Assembly: GCA_946611195.1 (NCBI GenBank)
Contig: CAMODB010000002.1
Span: 16,301 to 80,300 of the forward strand
Length of the DNA stretch: 64,000 nt
DNA from: an uncultured Bacillota bacterium
Lineage (GTDB): Bacteria > Bacillota_I > Bacilli_A > ML615J-28 > CAG-313
Direction of reading: 5' to 3'
Position numbers and translations under genes: made by a program. The stretch's first letter is position 1. Each line of letters starts with the position of its first letter. Below, in pieces: positions 324 to 58,052 of the stretch. The notes below the pieces were generated by a model. That model was not told the origin of the DNA. It saw nothing but the letters and a program-made list of their open reading frames with translations, and searched no databases.

Positions 324-496
324 TGTTTTCACCTCCTAAAAATTGGTTCTTTTATTTAAAAGAATATTTTTTCCTCGGTAGGATAATTTTTAAGCATTAG
401 AAACTTTCTTATTTTCATTATGCTCCTACTGTCTACGGCAGAGACTTTATATATAACTTATGAACTAGAATTATTATTTATTTTATTAAACTAATA
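324..496 (-). promoter_or_regulatory. Possible L10-leader-type structured 5' UTR between rplA and rplJ
   Basis: 173-nt spacer in an otherwise tightly packed operon. Minus strand shows nested pairings GTAGGAGCAT...ATGCTT...ATCCTAC and CTGCCGTAGACAG. Bacillota commonly carry an L10(L12)4-binding leader at this position. Not verified by covariance model. Confidence 0.3.
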
Positions 497-5800: not shown

Positions 5801-6502
5801 TTAACCCCTCTTTCTTAATATTTCAAAAAAGATAATTGAACAAGATACGCTGGCGTTAAGTGAATCAACATGACCAACCATAGGTATCTTAATTAAAGTA
5901 TCACAATTATCTTTGACAAGACGGCTTATCCCTTTACCTTCATTGCCGACCACAATTGCGACTTTACCAGAATAATCATAATCAGTATAACTAACACTAC
6001 CAGCCATATCAAGACCAGCAATCCAAAATCCATGTTTTTTTAATTTTTCCATTGTTTGAACAAGATTTGTTACTTGAAAACAAGGAACATGTTCAATAGC
6101 TCCTGTCGATACTTTCGCAACCGTATCATTTAAAGAAACACTACGATTCTTAGGAATAATAATTCCATCAATACCAGCCGCATCCGCACTTCTTAAGATA
6201 GCTCCTAAATTATGAGGATCTTCTAAATTATCAAGAATAGCGAGGCTACAAACAGCTAAATTCTTCTTTAAAAATTCATCTAAGTCTTGATATTGATAAT
6301 CGATTATTTCACAGATAAATCCTTGATGATTACCATTTGCGATTTTATCCATCTCTTTTAAAGTCTTAATTTCGATATTTAATTTTAAAGATGGAAAATT
6401 CTTTTTTACGATTTCTATTGTGTTAGTAGTTAAATATAATTTATTGATTTTTCTTTTCACTCGAAGTGCTTCGAGAACGGTATTTTTCCCATAAATTATC
6501 AT
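5801..6502 (-). CDS. rlmB: 23S rRNA 2'-O-ribose methyltransferase, SpoU/TrmH family (RlmB/YacO-like)
   Basis: MIIYGKNTVLEAL... with the SpoU motifs GNEGKGIS and SLNASVS. Start chosen at ATG 6502, preceded by GGAGAAG. The track ORF runs to 6529. Confidence 0.85.
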   Translation of the reverse strand: MIIYGKNTVLEALRVKRKINKLYLTTNTIEIVKKNFPSLKLNIEIKTLKEMDKIANGNHQGFICEIIDYQYQDLDEFLKKNLAVCSLAILDNLEDPHNLGAILRSADAAGIDGIIIPKNRSVSLNDTVAKVSTGAIEHVPCFQVTNLVQTMEKLKKHGFWIAGLDMAGSVSYTDYDYSGKVAIVVGNEGKGISRLVKDNCDTLIKIPMVGHVDSLNASVSCSIIFFEILRKRG

Positions 6503-6881
6503 TATTCTTCTCCACTGTTTCAAATACAAGTTGCATCAAAAAATCTAATCTTTCTGTATTTTTTTTTAAATAAAGATAACCAATTAAAGCTTCAAAGCCA
6601 CTCGCAACAATATATTCACTTTGATCAACATTCTTTCGATAAACATGATGAACACCATTACGACCTCTTAAATAAATCTTCTTTTCTTCTTCATTTAAGA
6701 TATCTAAAAGATTATTCATAATCATAGCTTGCGAAGATGCGGATACAAAATAAATACTCATCTTTTGTAATTCTTTATTCTTAGTAATATTATGATTAAT
6801 TAGATATTCTCTTACCTTTAATTCATAATAAGCATCGCCAATATAAGCCAAATTGCTGCCATTTAATAATTCAAAACGCAT
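6441..6881 (-). CDS. mrnC: Mini-ribonuclease III
   Basis: 146 aa with NGSNLAYIGDAYYELKVREYL and SGFEALIGYLYL RNase III-like motifs. cysS-mrnC-rlmB synteny. Its 3' end overlaps rlmB by 62 nt. Confidence 0.85.
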   Translation of the reverse strand: MRFELLNGSNLAYIGDAYYELKVREYLINHNITKNKELQKMSIYFVSASSQAMIMNNLLDILNEEEKKIYLRGRNGVHHVYRKNVDQSEYIVASGFEALIGYLYLKKNTERLDFLMQLVFETVEKNNDNLWEKYRSRSTSSEKKNQ

Positions 6882-6882
6882 T

Positions 6883-8241
6883 TTATAATTTAATACCTAA
6901 TTCAGTAATCTTATTTCTTAATTCATCAGCTTTCACAAAATCTTTTTCTTTACGGCTCTTTTGCCATTCTAAAACAAGTTCTAATTCTGATTTTGTTAAA
7001 GGTTTAACATCTACTTTAAGACCTAAAATATATAACATATCCGTAAATGTTTTGAATTCATCTTGATATGTTTTAAGTTCAACATCATTCTTTCTTAAAT
7101 CAACATTGATTTGTTTCATTAAACTATATAAGTGAGTAATCGCTGTACTAGTATTAAAATCATAAGCCATTTCTTTTAAGAAATCATCCATAATTGGTAA
7201 TACTTCACCACTTAAATCTTGATTAGGATTATTTAATTCAATTTTACGTTCTAAGGAAATATATAATTTTTCAATTTTATTCCATTCCCCACTCATTTGT
7301 TCCATCAAGTCATCTTGATAACTAATAACTTGACGATAATGATTTGATAAAATTGCCATTCTTAAAACCATTGGTGGATATTGTTCAATAATATCTTTAA
7401 CTAAGATAACATTGCCTAAAGATTTACTCATCTTTTCGCCTCTTAAATCAAGACGCGCATTATGAATCCAATAATGAGCTAAATAATCTTTATATAAAGA
7501 ATAATTTTGCGCTATTTCATTTTCATGATGTGGGAATCTTAAATCAGTTCCACCACCATGAATATCAATTGAGCCATTAAATATTTTATGAATCATAACT
7601 ACACATTCTGTATGCCAACCAGGGCGACCATCACCAAAACGACTTGGCCATTTTTTACCAGTATCTTTCGTCTTTTTCCATAAAGTAAAATCTCTTGGAT
7701 CTTTTTTACCACTATTAATTTCAATACGAGAACCAACTTCTAATTCATCAAGCTTTTGATTACTTAAAATACCATAAGTCGGATTACTATTTACATCATA
7801 ATAAACATCATCACCAGAAACATAAGCACTATTATTATCAACTAATCTTTGAATAAAATCAACAATGCCTTCGATATTTTCCGTAACTCTTGGACGAATA
7901 ACATCCATTTCACAGCCTAATTTTTCCACAACATCAAGATAAGCCTTAATATATTTATTAGCAATTTCTTCTTCACTAAGACCTTCTTTTAAAGCGGCTT
8001 TGATGATTTTATCATCAATATCAGTAAAATTAGAAGCATATACTACTTTATAACCAACATATTTTAAGAAACGACGAACAGTATCAAAAAAGATTACCGG
8101 ACGGGCATTACCAATATGAATATTATCATAAACAGTAGGTCCACAAACATACATATCGACTTCATCTTTTTTGATTGTCTTAAAATCTTCAATAGTTCCC
8201 GTTAATGAATTATAAACTTTAATTGTATTACGATCAAACAT
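6883..8241 (-). CDS. cysS: Cysteine--tRNA ligase
   Basis: 452 aa with class I motifs HIGNARP and KMSKSLGN. Confidence 0.97.
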   Translation of the reverse strand: MFDRNTIKVYNSLTGTIEDFKTIKKDEVDMYVCGPTVYDNIHIGNARPVIFFDTVRRFLKYVGYKVVYASNFTDIDDKIIKAALKEGLSEEEIANKYIKAYLDVVEKLGCEMDVIRPRVTENIEGIVDFIQRLVDNNSAYVSGDDVYYDVNSNPTYGILSNQKLDELEVGSRIEINSGKKDPRDFTLWKKTKDTGKKWPSRFGDGRPGWHTECVVMIHKIFNGSIDIHGGGTDLRFPHHENEIAQNYSLYKDYLAHYWIHNARLDLRGEKMSKSLGNVILVKDIIEQYPPMVLRMAILSNHYRQVISYQDDLMEQMSGEWNKIEKLYISLERKIELNNPNQDLSGEVLPIMDDFLKEMAYDFNTSTAITHLYSLMKQINVDLRKNDVELKTYQDEFKTFTDMLYILGLKVDVKPLTKSELELVLEWQKSRKEKDFVKADELRNKITELGIKL

Positions 8242-36130: not shown

Positions 36131-37933
36131 TTAATAATAATAATCGATTAATTTTTTAAGTCCTTCTTCCGGATTTTTAATGGAATCTTCCTTACTCATG
36201 AAATGAGGAGTAACACTATATAGGCGATGATGTTTAATTTTACTTATGCCACAAATAATCGTAATTGGTCGAATACTATTTTCTTTAATACCAGAATAGA
36301 CTTTTCCTTGTAAGCTTTGTGAATCAAAACAACCTTCACCAGTGATTACTTCATCATAATTTTTAACTAATTCTTTAAATTGTATTTCTTTAAGAAGGAA
36401 ATTAATACCTTGATCTACTTCACTATTTAAATATGACATGATACCAAAGCCACAACCACCAGCCGCACCAGATCCTTCTTTTTCACTTAAATCTTTATCT
36501 AATGTTTGAATAGTCACATCTTTAAAATTCTTTAGATTATTTTCTAATTCTATAAAGTCTCTTTCTCTAGCTCCTTTTTGTTTAGAATAAACATAAGTGG
36601 CTCCATTAGGTCCAAGTAAAGGATTTGTTACATCTGTTAAAAGCGTAAATTTAACATTTTTAATTCTATTTAATAAATTAGTAACTTTAATATTTTTAAT
36701 TAAAGCTAATTTTTCATTATTTAATTTTTCAATTAATTCATTATTTTCGTTATAGAATTCTAATCCTAAAGCTTCTAACATTCCACTACCACCATCATTA
36801 GAAGCACTACCACCGATACCGATAAAACAATGTTCAATATCATAATTCTCTAAAGCGTAATTAATGATATAACCTAAGCCATAAGTTGATGCGGTGAAAG
36901 GATTACGTTCTTTAGTCTTCATAATACCTACTACTTCCGCAAGTTCAAAATAAGCATGTTTACTATTTTCATCATATAAGAAGCTTGCGTAAGAAGGATT
37001 TAGAAAAGCATCATAAGAAAAGGCATAAATTCGTTTTAAGGAATGCATACTAGCTTCTAAACAATCAAGAAAGCCTTCACCACCATCCGATAACGCAATA
37101 ACGCCCGTTTGATAACCTTTTTTCTCTAATTCATTAGAAATCGTTCTCCCAACTTCTAGACTTGATAAACTACCTTTAAAGGAATCAGACGCAATTAAAA
37201 TACGATGGCCTTTTTTCGTAAAGAAATCTTTTTTAAAGATCGTGGATACTCTTTTATAAACAAAATAAGTAACAACATTTACCACCAGAGCTAGTAAGGC
37301 GTTAAAAGGAATAACCGCTAAGAATAGATAATATTGATAAAAATTATCTTTATTAATATTACTATATAATGGTTTTAACATATTTACTAATGGTTCAAAT
37401 TCTCCATTAAAATAGAATTTAACATAGAAGGGGATATTGATATAATAATTAGTAACTACACCACCAACAATCCAGGCGACAAACGCAAAGATTAAAGAGA
37501 TTAAACCACCTTTTTTATTCTTATGATAATTATAAAATAGACTTGATGATAAAACAACCATTGCGCCTATCATTAAATCAGCTAATTCACCGACATAATT
37601 AGTATGAGTAAATGGTATTTTTAAGACAAATCTAACTACAACTACTGCTAAACCCCACCAAGGTCCTAAAACAAAACCCGCTAAAAGAATAGGGAACATT
37701 GAGAAATTAATTTCTAAGAATGATGGAAAAAAAGGAAGTGGAAATTTTAAAAAATATAAAATATAAGATAAAGCAGAAAAGATTGCTACTTTTGCAATCA
37801 TATTAATGGTATAAGTAGTTCTTCGACCATGCTTTTCATTTCTTTCTTTTTTTCTCTTTTCGTTTATTAAGGTATAAGTTACTACATACATAACAAATAA
37901 AGTAATAATGATACCTAAATATAAATAATCCAT
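36131..37933 (-). CDS. Fusion protein: RibU-type ECF riboflavin-binding S component (N-terminal) plus glycerate kinase family domain (C-terminal)
   Basis: 600 aa. Residues ~40-235 match RibU (FLKFPLPFFPSFLEINFSMFPILLAGFVLGPWWG). Residues ~240-600 carry glycerate kinase family motifs (ASDSFKGSLS, LSDGGEGF, IGIGGSASNDGGSGM, EGSGAAGG, VITGEGCFDSQS). The frame is continuous and an FMN riboswitch lies immediately upstream. Confidence 0.8.
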   Translation of the reverse strand: MDYLYLGIIITLFVMYVVTYTLINEKRKKERNEKHGRRTTYTINMIAKVAIFSALSYILYFLKFPLPFFPSFLEINFSMFPILLAGFVLGPWWGLAVVVVRFVLKIPFTHTNYVGELADLMIGAMVVLSSSLFYNYHKNKKGGLISLIFAFVAWIVGGVVTNYYINIPFYVKFYFNGEFEPLVNMLKPLYSNINKDNFYQYYLFLAVIPFNALLALVVNVVTYFVYKRVSTIFKKDFFTKKGHRILIASDSFKGSLSSLEVGRTISNELEKKGYQTGVIALSDGGEGFLDCLEASMHSLKRIYAFSYDAFLNPSYASFLYDENSKHAYFELAEVVGIMKTKERNPFTASTYGLGYIINYALENYDIEHCFIGIGGSASNDGGSGMLEALGLEFYNENNELIEKLNNEKLALIKNIKVTNLLNRIKNVKFTLLTDVTNPLLGPNGATYVYSKQKGARERDFIELENNLKNFKDVTIQTLDKDLSEKEGSGAAGGCGFGIMSYLNSEVDQGINFLLKEIQFKELVKNYDEVITGEGCFDSQSLQGKVYSGIKENSIRPITIICGISKIKHHRLYSVTPHFMSKEDSIKNPEEGLKKLIDYYY

Positions 37934-37956
37934 ATTTAATCCTTTCTATCTATCAA

Positions 37957-38125
37957 GGAAAAAAACCCTCTATCATTCAGAGGGTTTTTATTACATACAA
38001 AAAGATGTTATTCTTCTTTCATCTAGACTTTACTATCGGTTTTGGAATTTCACCAAATCATGAGTTTATGACACCCTCGTGGACTATACCACCGGTTGGG
38101 AATTACACCCGACCCTGAAGACATT
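37957..38125 (-). promoter_or_regulatory. FMN riboswitch (RFN element) with intrinsic terminator expression platform
   Basis: Minus strand reads GTCTTCAGGGTCGGGTGTAATTCCCAACCGGTGGTATAGTCCACGAGG...GATTTGGTGAAATTCCAAAACCGATAGTAAAGTCTAGATGAAAGAAGA, which matches the conserved RFN cores and the P1 stem (TCTTC/GAAGA). It is followed by AAAAACCCTCT-GAATGAT-AGAGGGTTTTTTT at 37990-37957. Confidence 0.9.
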
Positions 38126-38169
38126 TCTATTTTATCACTATTAATTAAGTGATGGTTAATATTTGCATA

Positions 38170-38931
38170 TTAGAATAATTTTTTAATATCGGAATATTCA
38201 TAACCTTTACTGAGAAGCTTTTGAATAATCTTATTTTTATCATTTTCTTTTTCTTTGATTTTTTCATATAAAGCTTTTAATTTATCATAATCAACTTTCT
38301 GATATTCGATATTATTCATAACATAATTAATAATGTTAGTATTATATCCTTTCATCGTAAGTTTATTATAAAGAGCTTCTTTTTGTTTATTGATAGGTTC
38401 ACCAGCCAAAGATTTTAAAGTGTTTTTGCCAATATTTAAAGCCATTTCTCTTTGACTATTTTCATCTAAATTATTTAAATATTTGTCAATTAATTCTTCA
38501 TTAATTCCTTTACTAATAAGATTATATTTAATTAATTTTGGACCGCTATTCTTTCTTATTTCTTGTTCAATATAAATTTTTGTATAGCGTTCATCATCAA
38601 TGAAATTTAATTCTTTTAATCTTTTGATAATATTATTGATGATTTTTTCTTCTGTCGTTTTGGTTAATAATTTTTCTCTAACTTCTTTTTCTGTTCGCAT
38701 TTTAAAATCAATAAATTTTAAAATAGAATCAAAGATATTTACTTCATCAACACTTTTTTTGATTTTTTTAAATTCATCTTTGGAATAGGAATTACCTTTA
38801 ATAATTCGATTATTAACAATGGCATCTTCGGTTAAAAGAAGTATTTCTTCTGAATCCGTCGTATAGACTTGATATTTCTTACCTTTTTTTTCAACTTTAG
38901 TAATCCATACTAATTCTTCATTATCATTCAT
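38170..38931 (-). CDS. recX: Recombination regulator RecX (long Bacillus YfhG-like form)
   Basis: Three-helix repeats, e.g. RTEKEVREKLL and IINNIIKRLKELNFIDDERY. Start taken at MNDNEEL (ATG 38931); several in-frame ATGs occur up to 38955. Overlaps the prfB 3' end. Confidence 0.75.
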   Translation of the reverse strand: MNDNEELVWITKVEKKGKKYQVYTTDSEEILLLTEDAIVNNRIIKGNSYSKDEFKKIKKSVDEVNIFDSILKFIDFKMRTEKEVREKLLTKTTEEKIINNIIKRLKELNFIDDERYTKIYIEQEIRKNSGPKLIKYNLISKGINEELIDKYLNNLDENSQREMALNIGKNTLKSLAGEPINKQKEALYNKLTMKGYNTNIINYVMNNIEYQKVDYDKLKALYEKIKEKENDKNKIIQKLLSKGYEYSDIKKLF

Positions 38932-40048
38932 CATCATCACCATCATCAAGGACAAAACTACCTTTTTTAAGGCATTGTAGATAAGCCATCATGAAATCCA
39001 TCAAATCCCCATCTAAAACCTCTTGTGGTTGATTAGATACAAAAGATGTACGATGATCTTTTACCATTGAATAAGGATGTAAGATATAAGAACGGATTTG
39101 ACTACCCCAACCATTTTCTGATAATTCTCCAGCTGCTTCTTTCTTTTTTAAAGCTAATTCATTTAATTCTTTTTGATATAAACGGGCTTTTAAGATTTGC
39201 ATCGCTTTTTCCCGATTTTGAATTTGACTTCTTTGATTCTGACAACAAACGACAATTTCCGTCGGTAGATGGGTTAAACGAACTGCTGAATCTGTTTTAT
39301 TAATATGTTGACCACCAGCACCACTAGAACGATAAGTATCAATTCGTAAATCTTCATCCTTTATTTCAATATTGATATCTTCATTGACATCTGGCGTAAC
39401 AGTACAAGCTACAAAAGAAGTATGACGACGAGCATTAGAATCAAAAGGAGAAATACGTACTAAACGGTGAACACCATTTTCACTTTTTAAATAGCCATAA
39501 GCATTCTTACCACTAATTTCAAAAGTAACACTTTTGATTCCCGCATCAAGAGCTTCTTCATAATTAATAATATCAAATTTAAAATTATTTCTTTCCGCAA
39601 ATCTCTTATACATTCTAAATAACATTAAACCCCAGTCTTGTGATTCTGTTCCCCCAGCTCCAGGATGAAGTTCCATAATGGCATTTTCATTATCAAATTC
39701 ATCATTTAATAATTGTTCTGTTTCAAAATGTTTTAAGGAATAATCCAACTTATTAACAGTATCATCACAATTTTCATAATAACTATCTTCATTTAACATA
39801 ATTATTAATTCAATATCATCTAGACCTTTTTTTAATTCACTTAAGCCTTTTAAATTATCTTTTAATTTGTTACAACTATTAATTATTTTACTAGCTGCTC
39901 TTTGATCAGTTCAAAAATCATCCTCACTCATTTTTTGTTCATATTCAGCTATTTTATCTAAGCTTTCTTCAACATGAATGACATCTTCTAATTCTTTAAT
40001 TCTTTTTTGATAATCATTATATCTTTTTAATACTTCTGCTTTTTCCAT
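38924..40048 (-). CDS. prfB: Peptide chain release factor 2, interrupted by a single in-frame TGA at codon 46 (39911-39913); no +1 frameshift site
   Basis: ATG 40048 gives MEKAEVLKRYNDYQKRIKELEDVIHVEESLDKIAEYEQKMSEDDF-TGA-TDQRAASKIINS..., which continues in the same frame into the track ORF (HPGAGGTESQDW, RISPFD = SPF motif, SGAGGQHINKT = GGQ). Total 375 codons. The gene ends TGA TAA. Confidence 0.85.
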
Positions 40049-57389: not shown

Positions 57390-58052
57390 TTATAACTCTT
57401 TTCTTTGTTTTAATAGCTTTTCCATATTAGATGCATGATTATAGAAATTACCTAATTTATTTTCTTTAAAATCACGATCCATAAAATAAGTGATTTCAAA
57501 AATACGTTTTTCTAATTTTTCAATTTCATCATTAGTTTCTTTTTTTACCATCGCAAGATCTAATAATTTTTCCGCAGTCTTACGAACATTTTCTTCCCCA
57601 TTTTTTGTTAGATTATCAAGATAGAGAATTAAGCCTTCCATATCAATTACTTTAACTTCTTTTACTTCAATTGATTTTAAATGATCTTTATACATAAAAC
57701 CAAAAGCAAAGCCAATCGCAATTAAGGCAGCAAAGACAATTAAAATAATTAATGGTACCATAAATGGAATCTTAGTAAAGAATAAGAAAGCAATACCTGC
57801 TATAAATACTATTAAACTAAGTGGAAACATTAATGGTAAGAAAACACTTTGTTTTCTTTCATTATCAGGATTAGCTAATCTCATAATAAGTAATGCTACT
57901 AAAGGCAACATTACCATTACATAAGCTAACCACCAAGATAAGGATTTAAAAGCTTCTTTATTATTGTTATAAGTAATCAAAAAGATTAGAGCGTTTAACG
58001 CAACAAAAACAATAGCTAAAATCATTAAAAAATATTTTTTTGTACTTTTCAT
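57390..58052 (-). CDS. Hypothetical membrane protein with cytoplasmic helical C-terminal domain
   Basis: 220 aa with four hydrophobic segments followed by ~90 aa of charged helical sequence. First gene of the operon. Confidence 0.55.
   Translation of the reverse strand: MKSTKKYFLMILAIVFVALNALIFLITYNNNKEAFKSLSWWLAYVMVMLPLVALLIMRLANPDNERKQSVFLPLMFPLSLIVFIAGIAFLFFTKIPFMVPLIILIVFAALIAIGFAFGFMYKDHLKSIEVKEVKVIDMEGLILYLDNLTKNGEENVRKTAEKLLDLAMVKKETNDEIEKLEKRIFEITYFMDRDFKENKLGNFYNHASNMEKLLKQRKEL

Follow-up and report, generated by a model that had tools for sequence, protein, structure and literature searches.

A riboflavin transporter fused to a glycerate kinase family domain under the control of an FMN riboswitch in uncultured gut Bacilli

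Introduction

In Firmicutes, ribU genes (ypaA/fmnP) controlled by a flavin mononucleotide (FMN) riboswitch encode RibU, the riboflavin-binding S-component of a group II energy-coupling factor (ECF) transporter, a structure of which is available for Staphylococcus aureus (PDB 3P5N). Placing a transporter and a kinase together in an operon under a riboswitch is a standard design in salvage, as with ThiW-ThiM, which is controlled by a thiamine pyrophosphate (TPP) riboswitch, and PnuC-NadR, in which NadR is a ribosylnicotinamide kinase. This work concerns a 64,000-nucleotide (nt) stretch of the genome of an uncultured Bacillota bacterium (GenBank assembly GCA_946611195.1, contig CAMODB010000002.1, positions 16,301 to 80,300), here called the window, in which one open reading frame (ORF) of 600 amino acids (aa) behind an FMN riboswitch joins RibU to a domain of the glycerate kinase family. 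To our knowledge this kinase family has no known flavin activity and has only ever been assigned to glycerate.

The locus shares its riboswitch family and terminator platform with the ribU genes described above, and its S-component family and an AxxxA-type helix 1 with Firmicutes RibU. It differs from plain RibU in that a 355-aa cytoplasmic kinase is fused to helix 6 or encoded directly downstream, in that its RibU carries a C-terminal S-x-[IL]-FK-x-[DE]-FF motif and, within the subclade of the window, in having an extra N-terminal helix. With class I glycerate kinases (PF02595/TIGR00045; Escherichia coli GarK and GlxK; PDB 1TO6 and 3CWC) the kinase shares its fold family (316 bits), the eight predicted active-site residues and all glycine-rich loops; unlike them, it is encoded with ribU and an FMN riboswitch rather than with sugar-acid or glyoxylate genes, is membrane tethered, fails the models for glycerate 2- and 3-kinase equivalogs and has a distinctive patch formed by I546, Y552, P554 and K555. 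The logic of a controlled importer paired with a precursor-trapping kinase is that of PnuC-NadR and ThiW-ThiM, but the kinase families in those systems are known to act on the cargo and are not fused to an ECF S-component. With the recognized riboflavin kinases (RibF/RibC, PF01687; Bacillus subtilis RibR; the archaeal CTP-dependent RibK) only the proposed reaction is shared, as there is no sequence or fold relationship. An earlier sequence-only reading of the window had stated that no characterized example of this architecture was known, and none was found in the literature on the kinase family, RibU or the FMN riboswitch; no publication linking the family with RibU or with this riboswitch was identified, and the architecture is not mentioned in a preprint on riboflavin degradation in the gut or in a survey of the S-component fold. 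These comparisons suggest that the new element is a catalytically intact kinase of the glycerate kinase fold that is obligately partnered with RibU, a pairing undescribed in the literature found.

Results

Structure of the fusion gene

The ORF listing confirmed that the fusion is encoded by one uninterrupted frame with no stop codon or frame change (coordinates of all features are given in Table 1). A protein identical to that of the window is present in separate ENA assemblies (cluster P0001, with four member sequences on two contigs), and this independent recovery, together with the existence of about 75 clusters of fusion proteins, shows that the fusion is no assembly artefact. The division into an N-terminal RibU and a complete C-terminal glycerate kinase domain proposed by the sequence-only reading agrees with matches to Pfam, TIGR00045 and the PDB, and each of the kinase motifs it listed (DSFKGS, SDGGEG, GIGGSASNDGG, GSGAAGG and ITGEG) was found in the translation.

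The N-terminal half matched Pfam family ECF_trnsprt (PF12822) at aa 45 to 226 with 77 bits (cut-off, 30.7; E value, 2.3e-21), and its matches in the PDB were exclusively to RibU (S. aureus 3p5n at 1.1e-18; 5kc0 and 5kbw at about 1e-11). It is 42 to 47% identical to plain RibU proteins encoded behind an FMN riboswitch, and 42 to 60% identical to those of Acholeplasma, Izemoplasma and Anaeroplasma-type Bacilli with the same riboswitch, and its homologues are named RibU or FmnP at the source. The AxxxA motif in helix 1 of S-components serves docking to EcfT (PMC11109136). The window RibU has this motif as A50-I-F-S-A54, with A54 invariant in an alignment of 24 sequences (A1) and at least 90% conserved in a second alignment of 61 fusions (A2), while position 50 is occupied by A, S, G or T in A1. 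The RibU half is a predicted riboflavin-capturing S-component.

An additional N-terminal transmembrane segment had also been proposed. Residues 2 to 32 are hydrophobic and followed by a K/R-rich loop, and they were modeled by AlphaFold2 (AF2) as a helix, at a low predicted local distance difference test score (pLDDT) of 54 to 59. This extension is a feature of a subclade, as it was also found in P0002 but is missing from most fusions in A1; judged by length, the separately encoded RibU proteins of loci L001 and L085 have an N terminus that is about 40 aa longer. The AF2 model of the whole fusion, based on a 61-sequence alignment, had a mean pLDDT of 87.2 and a predicted template modeling score (pTM) of 0.61. 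Both domains were modeled confidently, with hinge residues 235 to 239 falling below a pLDDT of 50; this hinge and the pTM value suggest a flexible tether that would leave the mutual orientation of the domains undefined.

RibU ends in a junction motif, S230-T-I-F-K-K-D-F-F238. Across the 61 fusions S230 and F233 never vary, and conservation of K234, D236 and F237 is 90% or higher. The catalytic loop of the kinase, D250-S-F-K253, starts 13 residues past this motif.

The riboswitch leader

Searches against Rfam and Pfam, which the sequence-only reading had recommended, recovered the aptamer as well as the RibU-type and Gly_kinase domains. The leader matched the full FMN riboswitch model (RF00050, positions 1 to 138) with 108.5 bits (gathering score, 66.2; E value, 2.7e-24), and the cores and P1 helix (UCUUC/GAAGA) on which the recognition of a textbook RFN element had been based are all present. 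The aptamer lies in the 5' leader on the same strand as the fusion ORF, 73 nt from its ATG, and this upstream position is kept in more than 12 related loci.

An intrinsic terminator had been placed about 23 nt upstream of the ORF. Using RNA folding, a 12-bp hairpin (AAAAACCCUCUG/UAGAGGGUUUUU) with a 5-nt loop followed by a U-run was identified about 22 nt from the ORF start, with a folding energy of -19.4 kcal/mol and a z-score of -3.4; none of 200 shuffled sequences folded as well. A scan for consensus terminators missed this element because its A/U ends extend the stem into the T-run. Similar combinations of a hairpin and a T-run were found at L001, L005 to L009, L011 and L089. A segment of the aptamer, CACGAGGGUG, is able to pair with the 5' arm of the terminator, AACCCUCUG, at -11.7 kcal/mol, and pairing of these two segments before the 3' arm is transcribed would plausibly constitute the antiterminator. 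As predicted from these elements, the regulatory half is a textbook case of FMN-dependent transcription attenuation of a riboflavin S-component.

Distribution and conservation of the unit

To identify whether relatives of the window carry the fusion or its parts as separate genes, protein clusters and genome assemblies were surveyed, and both states were found. Approximately 75 clusters (90% identity) share the two-domain fusion, at 40 to 56% identity to the window protein, and where these are named at the source the name is "glycerate kinase [Bacilli bacterium]". A genome scan located the module in nine species-representative assemblies of uncultured gut Bacilli, labeled by their submitters as Bacilli, Erysipelotrichaceae, Acholeplasmatales, Bacillales UBA1737 and Staphylococcus sp. 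CAG:324. Analysis of ORFs at these nine loci identified four fusions (L005 to L008) and five adjacent or overlapping gene pairs (L009, L010, L011, L013 and L023), refuting the possibility that the fusion is confined to one assembly. Further split pairs were identified on metagenomic contigs (L001 to L003, L085, L089 and L091), among which the gene order of the window, SecA-RF2-RecX-[riboswitch-ribU-kinase]-FtsK, is frequent. Clustering at 50% leaves the fused family with about four representatives and a single split form out of 12,574 family matches, and it is therefore a narrow, lineage-specific invention.

An FMN riboswitch scoring 98 to 111 bits was found directly upstream of the module in all nine genome loci, and in the same score range before the split pairs of L001, L089 and L091; L085 was left out of this comparison as its contig begins too near ribU. 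Among the control loci, no FMN riboswitch was detected at solo kinases (L012, L014, L086 and L090) or at kinase genes fused to a HAD domain (L004 and L088), while plain ribU genes of sister lineages (L015, L026, L034 and L049) have the riboswitch but no kinase neighbor. The conserved unit is therefore "FMN riboswitch-ribU-kinase", of which the fusion is one frequent state. No second Gly_kinase or RibU of the nine assemblies was present among the best 80 genome matches, a result that is suggestive only, since the scan used a pattern prefilter and metagenome-assembled genomes (MAGs). No glycerate-related or sugar-acid gene was found beside the module in about 15 loci.

The junction motif follows the same distribution. 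It was found, as S-x-[IL]-FK-x-[DE]-FF, at the very C terminus of the split RibU proteins of L001, L085, L089 and L091 and is missing from the plain RibU proteins of L015, L034 and L049. In these sequences the motif appears to be specific to kinase-partnered RibU, whether fused or split, and we take it as evidence of physical coupling. The proposal that the fusion is functionally tied to flavin uptake thus gains support from the riboswitch before all nine loci, the continued adjacency of the genes when split and the retention of the motif by RibU.

Family and active site of the kinase domain

Pfam Gly_kinase matched aa 245 to 595 over profile positions 1 to 363 of 372 with 316.5 bits (cut-off, 23.3; E value, 3e-94), and NCBIfam TIGR00045 ("glycerate kinase") matched with 286.1 bits (cut-off, 168.45). 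In the PDB, this half matched glycerate kinases (3cwc and 1to6, about 1e-42). It scored far below the cut-offs of the equivalog models for glycerate 2-kinase (GarK, NF007668; 187 bits against a cut-off of 686) and glycerate 3-kinase (GlxK, NF007401; 176 bits against 625), and Pfam Flavokinase (PF01687) had no match in the fusion protein.

Eight conserved active-site residues have been described in 1to6: D8, K11, D43, D191, Q209, E286, D290 and K297 (Cheek et al., PMC1079889). These map to D250, K253, D283, D434, Q452, E533, D537 and K544 of the fusion, where all are kept. To compare them across the family, kinase domains were divided into RibU-linked (n = 85), DUF6873-linked (n = 5), HAD-fused (n = 3), solo Bacilli (n = 27) and other-phyla (n = 31) groups. 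Five of the eight residues did not vary in any group. Of the 85 RibU-linked sequences, 84 have D250 and 84 have K253, with D250 also missing from one of the 31 sequences from other phyla, and none of the eight residues is found in fewer than 84 of the linked sequences. This conservation argues that the enzyme is almost certainly active. The only residues specific to the linked clade were found at positions that vary in the family, namely a patch following the catalytic lysine (I546, Y552, P554 and K555) and L460.

In a neighbor-joining (NJ) tree of 151 kinase domains, a clade of 90 leaves contained all 77 fused or split kinases and 13 labeled as solo. One member was examined for each of three groups of these solo kinases, with P0078 left out. 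Of those examined, P0103, from a group of six, and P0118, which stands alone as one leaf, were found to belong to ribU-adjacent pairs; their two groups account for seven of the apparently solo kinases.

RibF and other architectures in related loci

L004 itself aside, a tblastn search with a RibF query from the lineage matched neither the window nor any of 84 loci, and neither RibF nor TruB was found in the window or the flanks of the module. The RibF homologues recovered by a protein search bore generic names only, and accession blocks at NCBI differed between the fusion (MBR6515387) and RibF (MBQ8292715 and MBQ8472090). At L004 and L088, a Gly_kinase::HAD_2 fusion of about 577 aa, with the kinase N-terminal and HAD C-terminal, has truB-ribF immediately downstream; the genes abut or overlap, and the RibF proteins of these two genomes are 57% identical. 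In the five-member nested subgroup of the kinase tree, the kinase gene at L090 follows, after a gap of 5 nt, a gene for a soluble, Cys-rich DUF6873 protein.

A sister architecture occurs at L092, where an FMN riboswitch precedes a gene fusing RibU to a FlaR-like "DNA topology modulation" domain of the P-loop kinase fold, 1.4 kb downstream of truB-ribF. This singleton (P0386) was considered as an independent second fusion of RibU to a kinase but, being one sequence on one contig, it carries almost no weight and may be a recent accident. The adjacent ribF, which appeared as a 206-aa ORF and a 75-aa Flavokinase ORF, was considered as a pseudogene; this was rejected, as both domains are intact and are broken only by a scaffold gap of Ns.

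Fusion of the kinase to a transport protein was also seen at L093, where an ABC transporter ATPase is joined to a canonical Gly_kinase (604 aa, 11 contigs). The gene overlaps the end of a gene for a GntP-family permease and is followed by uxaC and KDPG aldolase, with pectin degradation genes around it, and a flavin-related coupling was rejected given this ordinary setting of sugar-acid catabolism. Ordinary members of the family, as with GntP and the kinase here, also pair with a permease for their likely substrate.

Two split pairs, those of L089 and L091, have a convergent gene for a Cof-type HAD-IIB phosphatase just downstream. Its similarity to YcsE-related phosphatases of riboflavin metabolism is weak (60.7 bits against a cut-off of 220) and stands among many other matches. 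On two unrelated Bacilli contigs (L012 and L086), a GKRP-like SIS-domain protein of about 590 aa is encoded two genes downstream of a solo Gly_kinase, which may be a conserved association between the GKRP-like protein and the ordinary kinase.

Discussion

The best explanation found for the module is that the kinase phosphorylates imported riboflavin and so couples trapping to transport; we put it forward tentatively, as quite possible rather than probable. By this account the module would serve flavin salvage in riboflavin-dependent gut Bacilli. When FMN is scarce, transcription would run past the terminator, and when FMN is abundant the aptamer would fold, the terminator would form and the gene would be silenced. 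RibU, presumably working with a shared EcfAA'T module, would bind riboflavin outside the cell and bring it into the cytoplasm. The short flexible hinge would tie RibU to the kinase, an active enzyme of the glycerate kinase fold that uses ATP to phosphorylate small molecules. The phosphoryl group, we infer, would go to the CHOH-CH2OH end of the ribityl chain in riboflavin delivered by RibU, and the FMN formed would both trap the vitamin and aid its release from the transporter. The kinase would see only this ribityl CHOH-CH2OH, which resembles C2-C3 of glycerate, while RibU would hold the flavin ring, an arrangement that would explain the unaltered appearance of the kinase pocket together with the conserved docking to RibU. 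A kinase acting on the cargo is favored because of the riboswitch control, the conservation of the operon or fusion, the docking motif and the precedent of other transporter-kinase pairs. Further points in its favor are the conserved active site, the lack of a second Gly_kinase or RibU locus of the nine assemblies among the best 80 genome matches, the pairing of an ordinary kinase with GntP at L093 and the distance of only 13 residues from the membrane-anchoring junction motif to the DSFKG loop. The fullest form of the proposal, in which the domain would be a third, nonhomologous riboflavin kinase active only in complex with RibU, with the tail presented by a toppled S-component and the ECF transporter operating in a manner resembling group translocation, is doubtful, although worth stating.

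A number of observations weigh against phosphorylation of riboflavin. Taking a column as conserved when at least 85% of the non-linked kinases agree, 52 of the 57 such columns reach the same level in the linked clade, and neither a strict nor a relaxed scan identified any family-conserved column with a different consensus residue in that clade. The pocket therefore looks unchanged, which argues against a dedicated flavin site; had the substrate changed from a C3 acid to a flavin, more traces of this would be expected in the sequences. The mean identity of the domain is 55% between fused kinases and, almost as high, 46% between fused and solo Bacilli kinases. Within the clade, the kinase represented by P0088 (a group of five) lies behind a DUF6873 gene with no RibU and no riboswitch. 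The HAD domain of the kinase::HAD fusion is most like phosphoglycolate phosphatase, albeit below cut-offs, and this points to C2/C3-acid chemistry in the wider clade. At L092, the genome with the sister RibU fusion has an intact ribF. Finally, no EcfT/CbiQ family match was found in the ten window ORFs scanned, although these include two ABC ATPases.

The main alternative, which we consider unlikely but serious, is that the domain is a genuine D-glycerate kinase recruited to the flavin regulon, first as an operon member and later as a fusion partner of ribU, for some physiological purpose other than phosphorylation of the vitamin. Its catalytic residues and nearly all family-conserved residues are as in ordinary glycerate kinases, it passes TIGR00045 (286 bits against a cut-off of 168), its relatives occur in sugar-acid contexts (L093) or fused to a phosphoglycolate phosphatase-like HAD, and it is apparently the sole family member detected in the module genomes, so that it may also be the housekeeping glycerate kinase. 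Such a kinase might feed lower glycolysis by a route that needs no flavin and is switched on under starvation of flavoenzymes, on the model of B12 riboswitches, which control B12-independent isozymes; another possibility would be modulation of RibU by glycerate or ATP status through the tethered domain. A glycerate kinase leaves unexplained, however, the physical and ancient coupling to RibU and a partner-specific motif that survives splitting of the genes. Repression by FMN of a housekeeping feeder of glycolysis has no known rationale, no glycerate-related gene stands beside the module in the 15 or so loci, and the 2-kinase and 3-kinase equivalog scores are far below their cut-offs (187 against 686 and 176 against 625). 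The conserved, riboswitch-controlled coupling would also suit a kinase acting on another flavin-related or polyol substrate, candidates being a different ribityl hydroxyl, an analogue or precursor of riboflavin brought in by RibU, or a damaged flavin, and it would suit a mainly regulatory or assembly domain that could govern how RibU docks with the shared ECF module or let RibU work without that module. We regard this pair of options as improbable. The flexible tether and the conserved junction motif fit communication between domains, and the Cof-type HAD phosphatase beside two split pairs, with its weak YcsE-related similarity, and the kinase::HAD fusion directly upstream of truB-ribF in two genomes could also be counted for these options. 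The HAD matches are, however, far below cut-offs, the truB-ribF adjacency may be inherited synteny of related genomes, no positive evidence favors any specific alternative substrate, and the catalytic residues are all strictly conserved, which favors catalysis over a purely structural role.

A neutral accident, in which two unrelated neighbors in a compact, AT-rich genome were joined by loss of the stop codon between them without any functional relation, is very improbable. Singleton fusions of RibU to an unrelated neighbor do occur, as in P0386 on its one contig, and the family is phylogenetically narrow, with about four fused representatives at 50% clustering. Against this, the adjacency holds down to 38% kinase-domain identity in fused and split form alike, in every case with the riboswitch in front, the RibU motif particular to kinase partners is conserved, and no kinase stands next to plain ribU in sister lineages.

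If phosphorylation of the imported flavin is correct, it would be a new activity for the family and would provide a third, unrelated riboflavin kinase fold. Among ECF vitamin transporters, the module would also be the first to incorporate a trapping enzyme, which would bear on how S-components release tightly bound cargo. Should the domain prove to be a glycerate kinase after all, riboflavin uptake would be physically tied to lower glycolysis for reasons still unexplained. In either case, automatic annotation as "glycerate kinase" hides the sole detectable riboflavin transporter of widespread, probably riboflavin-dependent gut Bacilli and distorts the metabolic reconstructions of those that bear the module.

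Other features of the window and of related loci

TABLE 1 Features of the riboswitch-ribU-kinase locus in the window and of other sites in the window and related loci
Feature	Location	Strand	Basis or remark
RibU::Gly_kinase fusion ORF, 600 aa, stop included	36131..37933	-	ORF listing
Gly_kinase (PF02595) domain, aa 244-597	36143..37204	-	Pfam, TIGR00045, PDB
Junction motif S230-F238	37220..37246	-	Signature of kinase-partnered RibU
RibU-type ECF S-component, aa 42-236	37226..37810	-	Pfam PF12822
Extra N-terminal hydrophobic helix, subclade specific, aa 1-32	37838..37933	-	Alignment, AF2
Shine-Dalgarno-like AAAGGA	37940..37945	-	Read from sequence, 6 nt before ATG at 37933
Intrinsic terminator, riboswitch expression platform	37955..37989 (about)	-	RNA folding
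FMN riboswitch aptamer (RFN element)	38007..38126	-	Rfam RF00050
RF2 gene (prfB)	38924..40048	-	SPF and GGQ motifs
In-frame TGA, codon 46 of RF2 gene	39911-39913	-	
Ribosomal protein L10 leader	328-456	-	RF00557, 50 bits (gathering score, 44)
ABC ATPase	52873-53466	-	Cluster with the next three
Cluster ORF	55093-56688	-	
ABC ATPase	56675-57388	-	
Cluster ORF	57390-58052	-	
TGA-containing RF2 gene, L001	3160-4284		
TGA-containing RF2 gene, L005	7683-8768		
TGA-containing RF2 gene, L007	6793-7881		
TGA-containing RF2 gene, L023	7921-9006		
Gly_kinase::HAD_2 fusion locus, L004	6001-9508		
Gly_kinase::HAD_2 fusion locus, L088	4066-7582		
GKRP-like SIS-domain protein, L012	12589-14361		
GKRP-like SIS-domain protein, L086	8662-10431		
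Heliorhodopsin gene, L014	7465-8298	-	PF18761, 327 bits
c-di-GMP-I riboswitch, L031	14887-14960		58 bits
Cof-type HAD-IIB phosphatase, L089	6158-6973	-	
Cof-type HAD-IIB phosphatase, L091	2365-3177	-	
DUF6873 protein and kinase, L090	4282-6098		
RibU::FlaR-like fusion locus, L092	5825-7104		Riboswitch 5825-5938, gene 6001-7104
ABC_tran::Gly_kinase fusion locus, L093	5700-8815		

Elsewhere in the window, an L10 leader was found upstream of the rplJ region. The minus-strand cluster between 52873 and 58052 comprises the two ABC ATPases and several unmatched ORFs; those of 531, 297, 236, 221 and 220 aa had no Pfam match at an E value of 1e-4 or better, and no EcfT/CbiQ was recognized in the cluster, which may be a divergent ABC or ECF system. 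In related loci, a heliorhodopsin gene lies two genes from the solo Gly_kinase of L014, a complete Acholeplasmataceae MAG chromosome. A cyclic di-GMP (c-di-GMP) type I riboswitch is located about 4 kb downstream of the plain ribU of L031 (Bacillales UBA1188), at which RF00050 had no match in the scan.

The gene for peptide chain release factor 2 (RF2) in the window is in one frame with a single in-frame TGA, and it has no +1 frameshift site (CUU-UGA-C). This codon stands for the Trp of an F-W motif, for which eight relatives have TGG. Five lineages (the window, L001 to L003, L005, L007 and L023) have TGA instead, and the next letter is A in every one of them. The window otherwise uses the standard code, with TGA ending 7 of 41 long ORFs and TGG making up 0.86% of codons. 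Gene callers split the window RF2 into ORFs of 45 and 294 aa. On the basis of these sequences, RF2 may be autoregulated by read-through of UGA in place of the classical frameshift.

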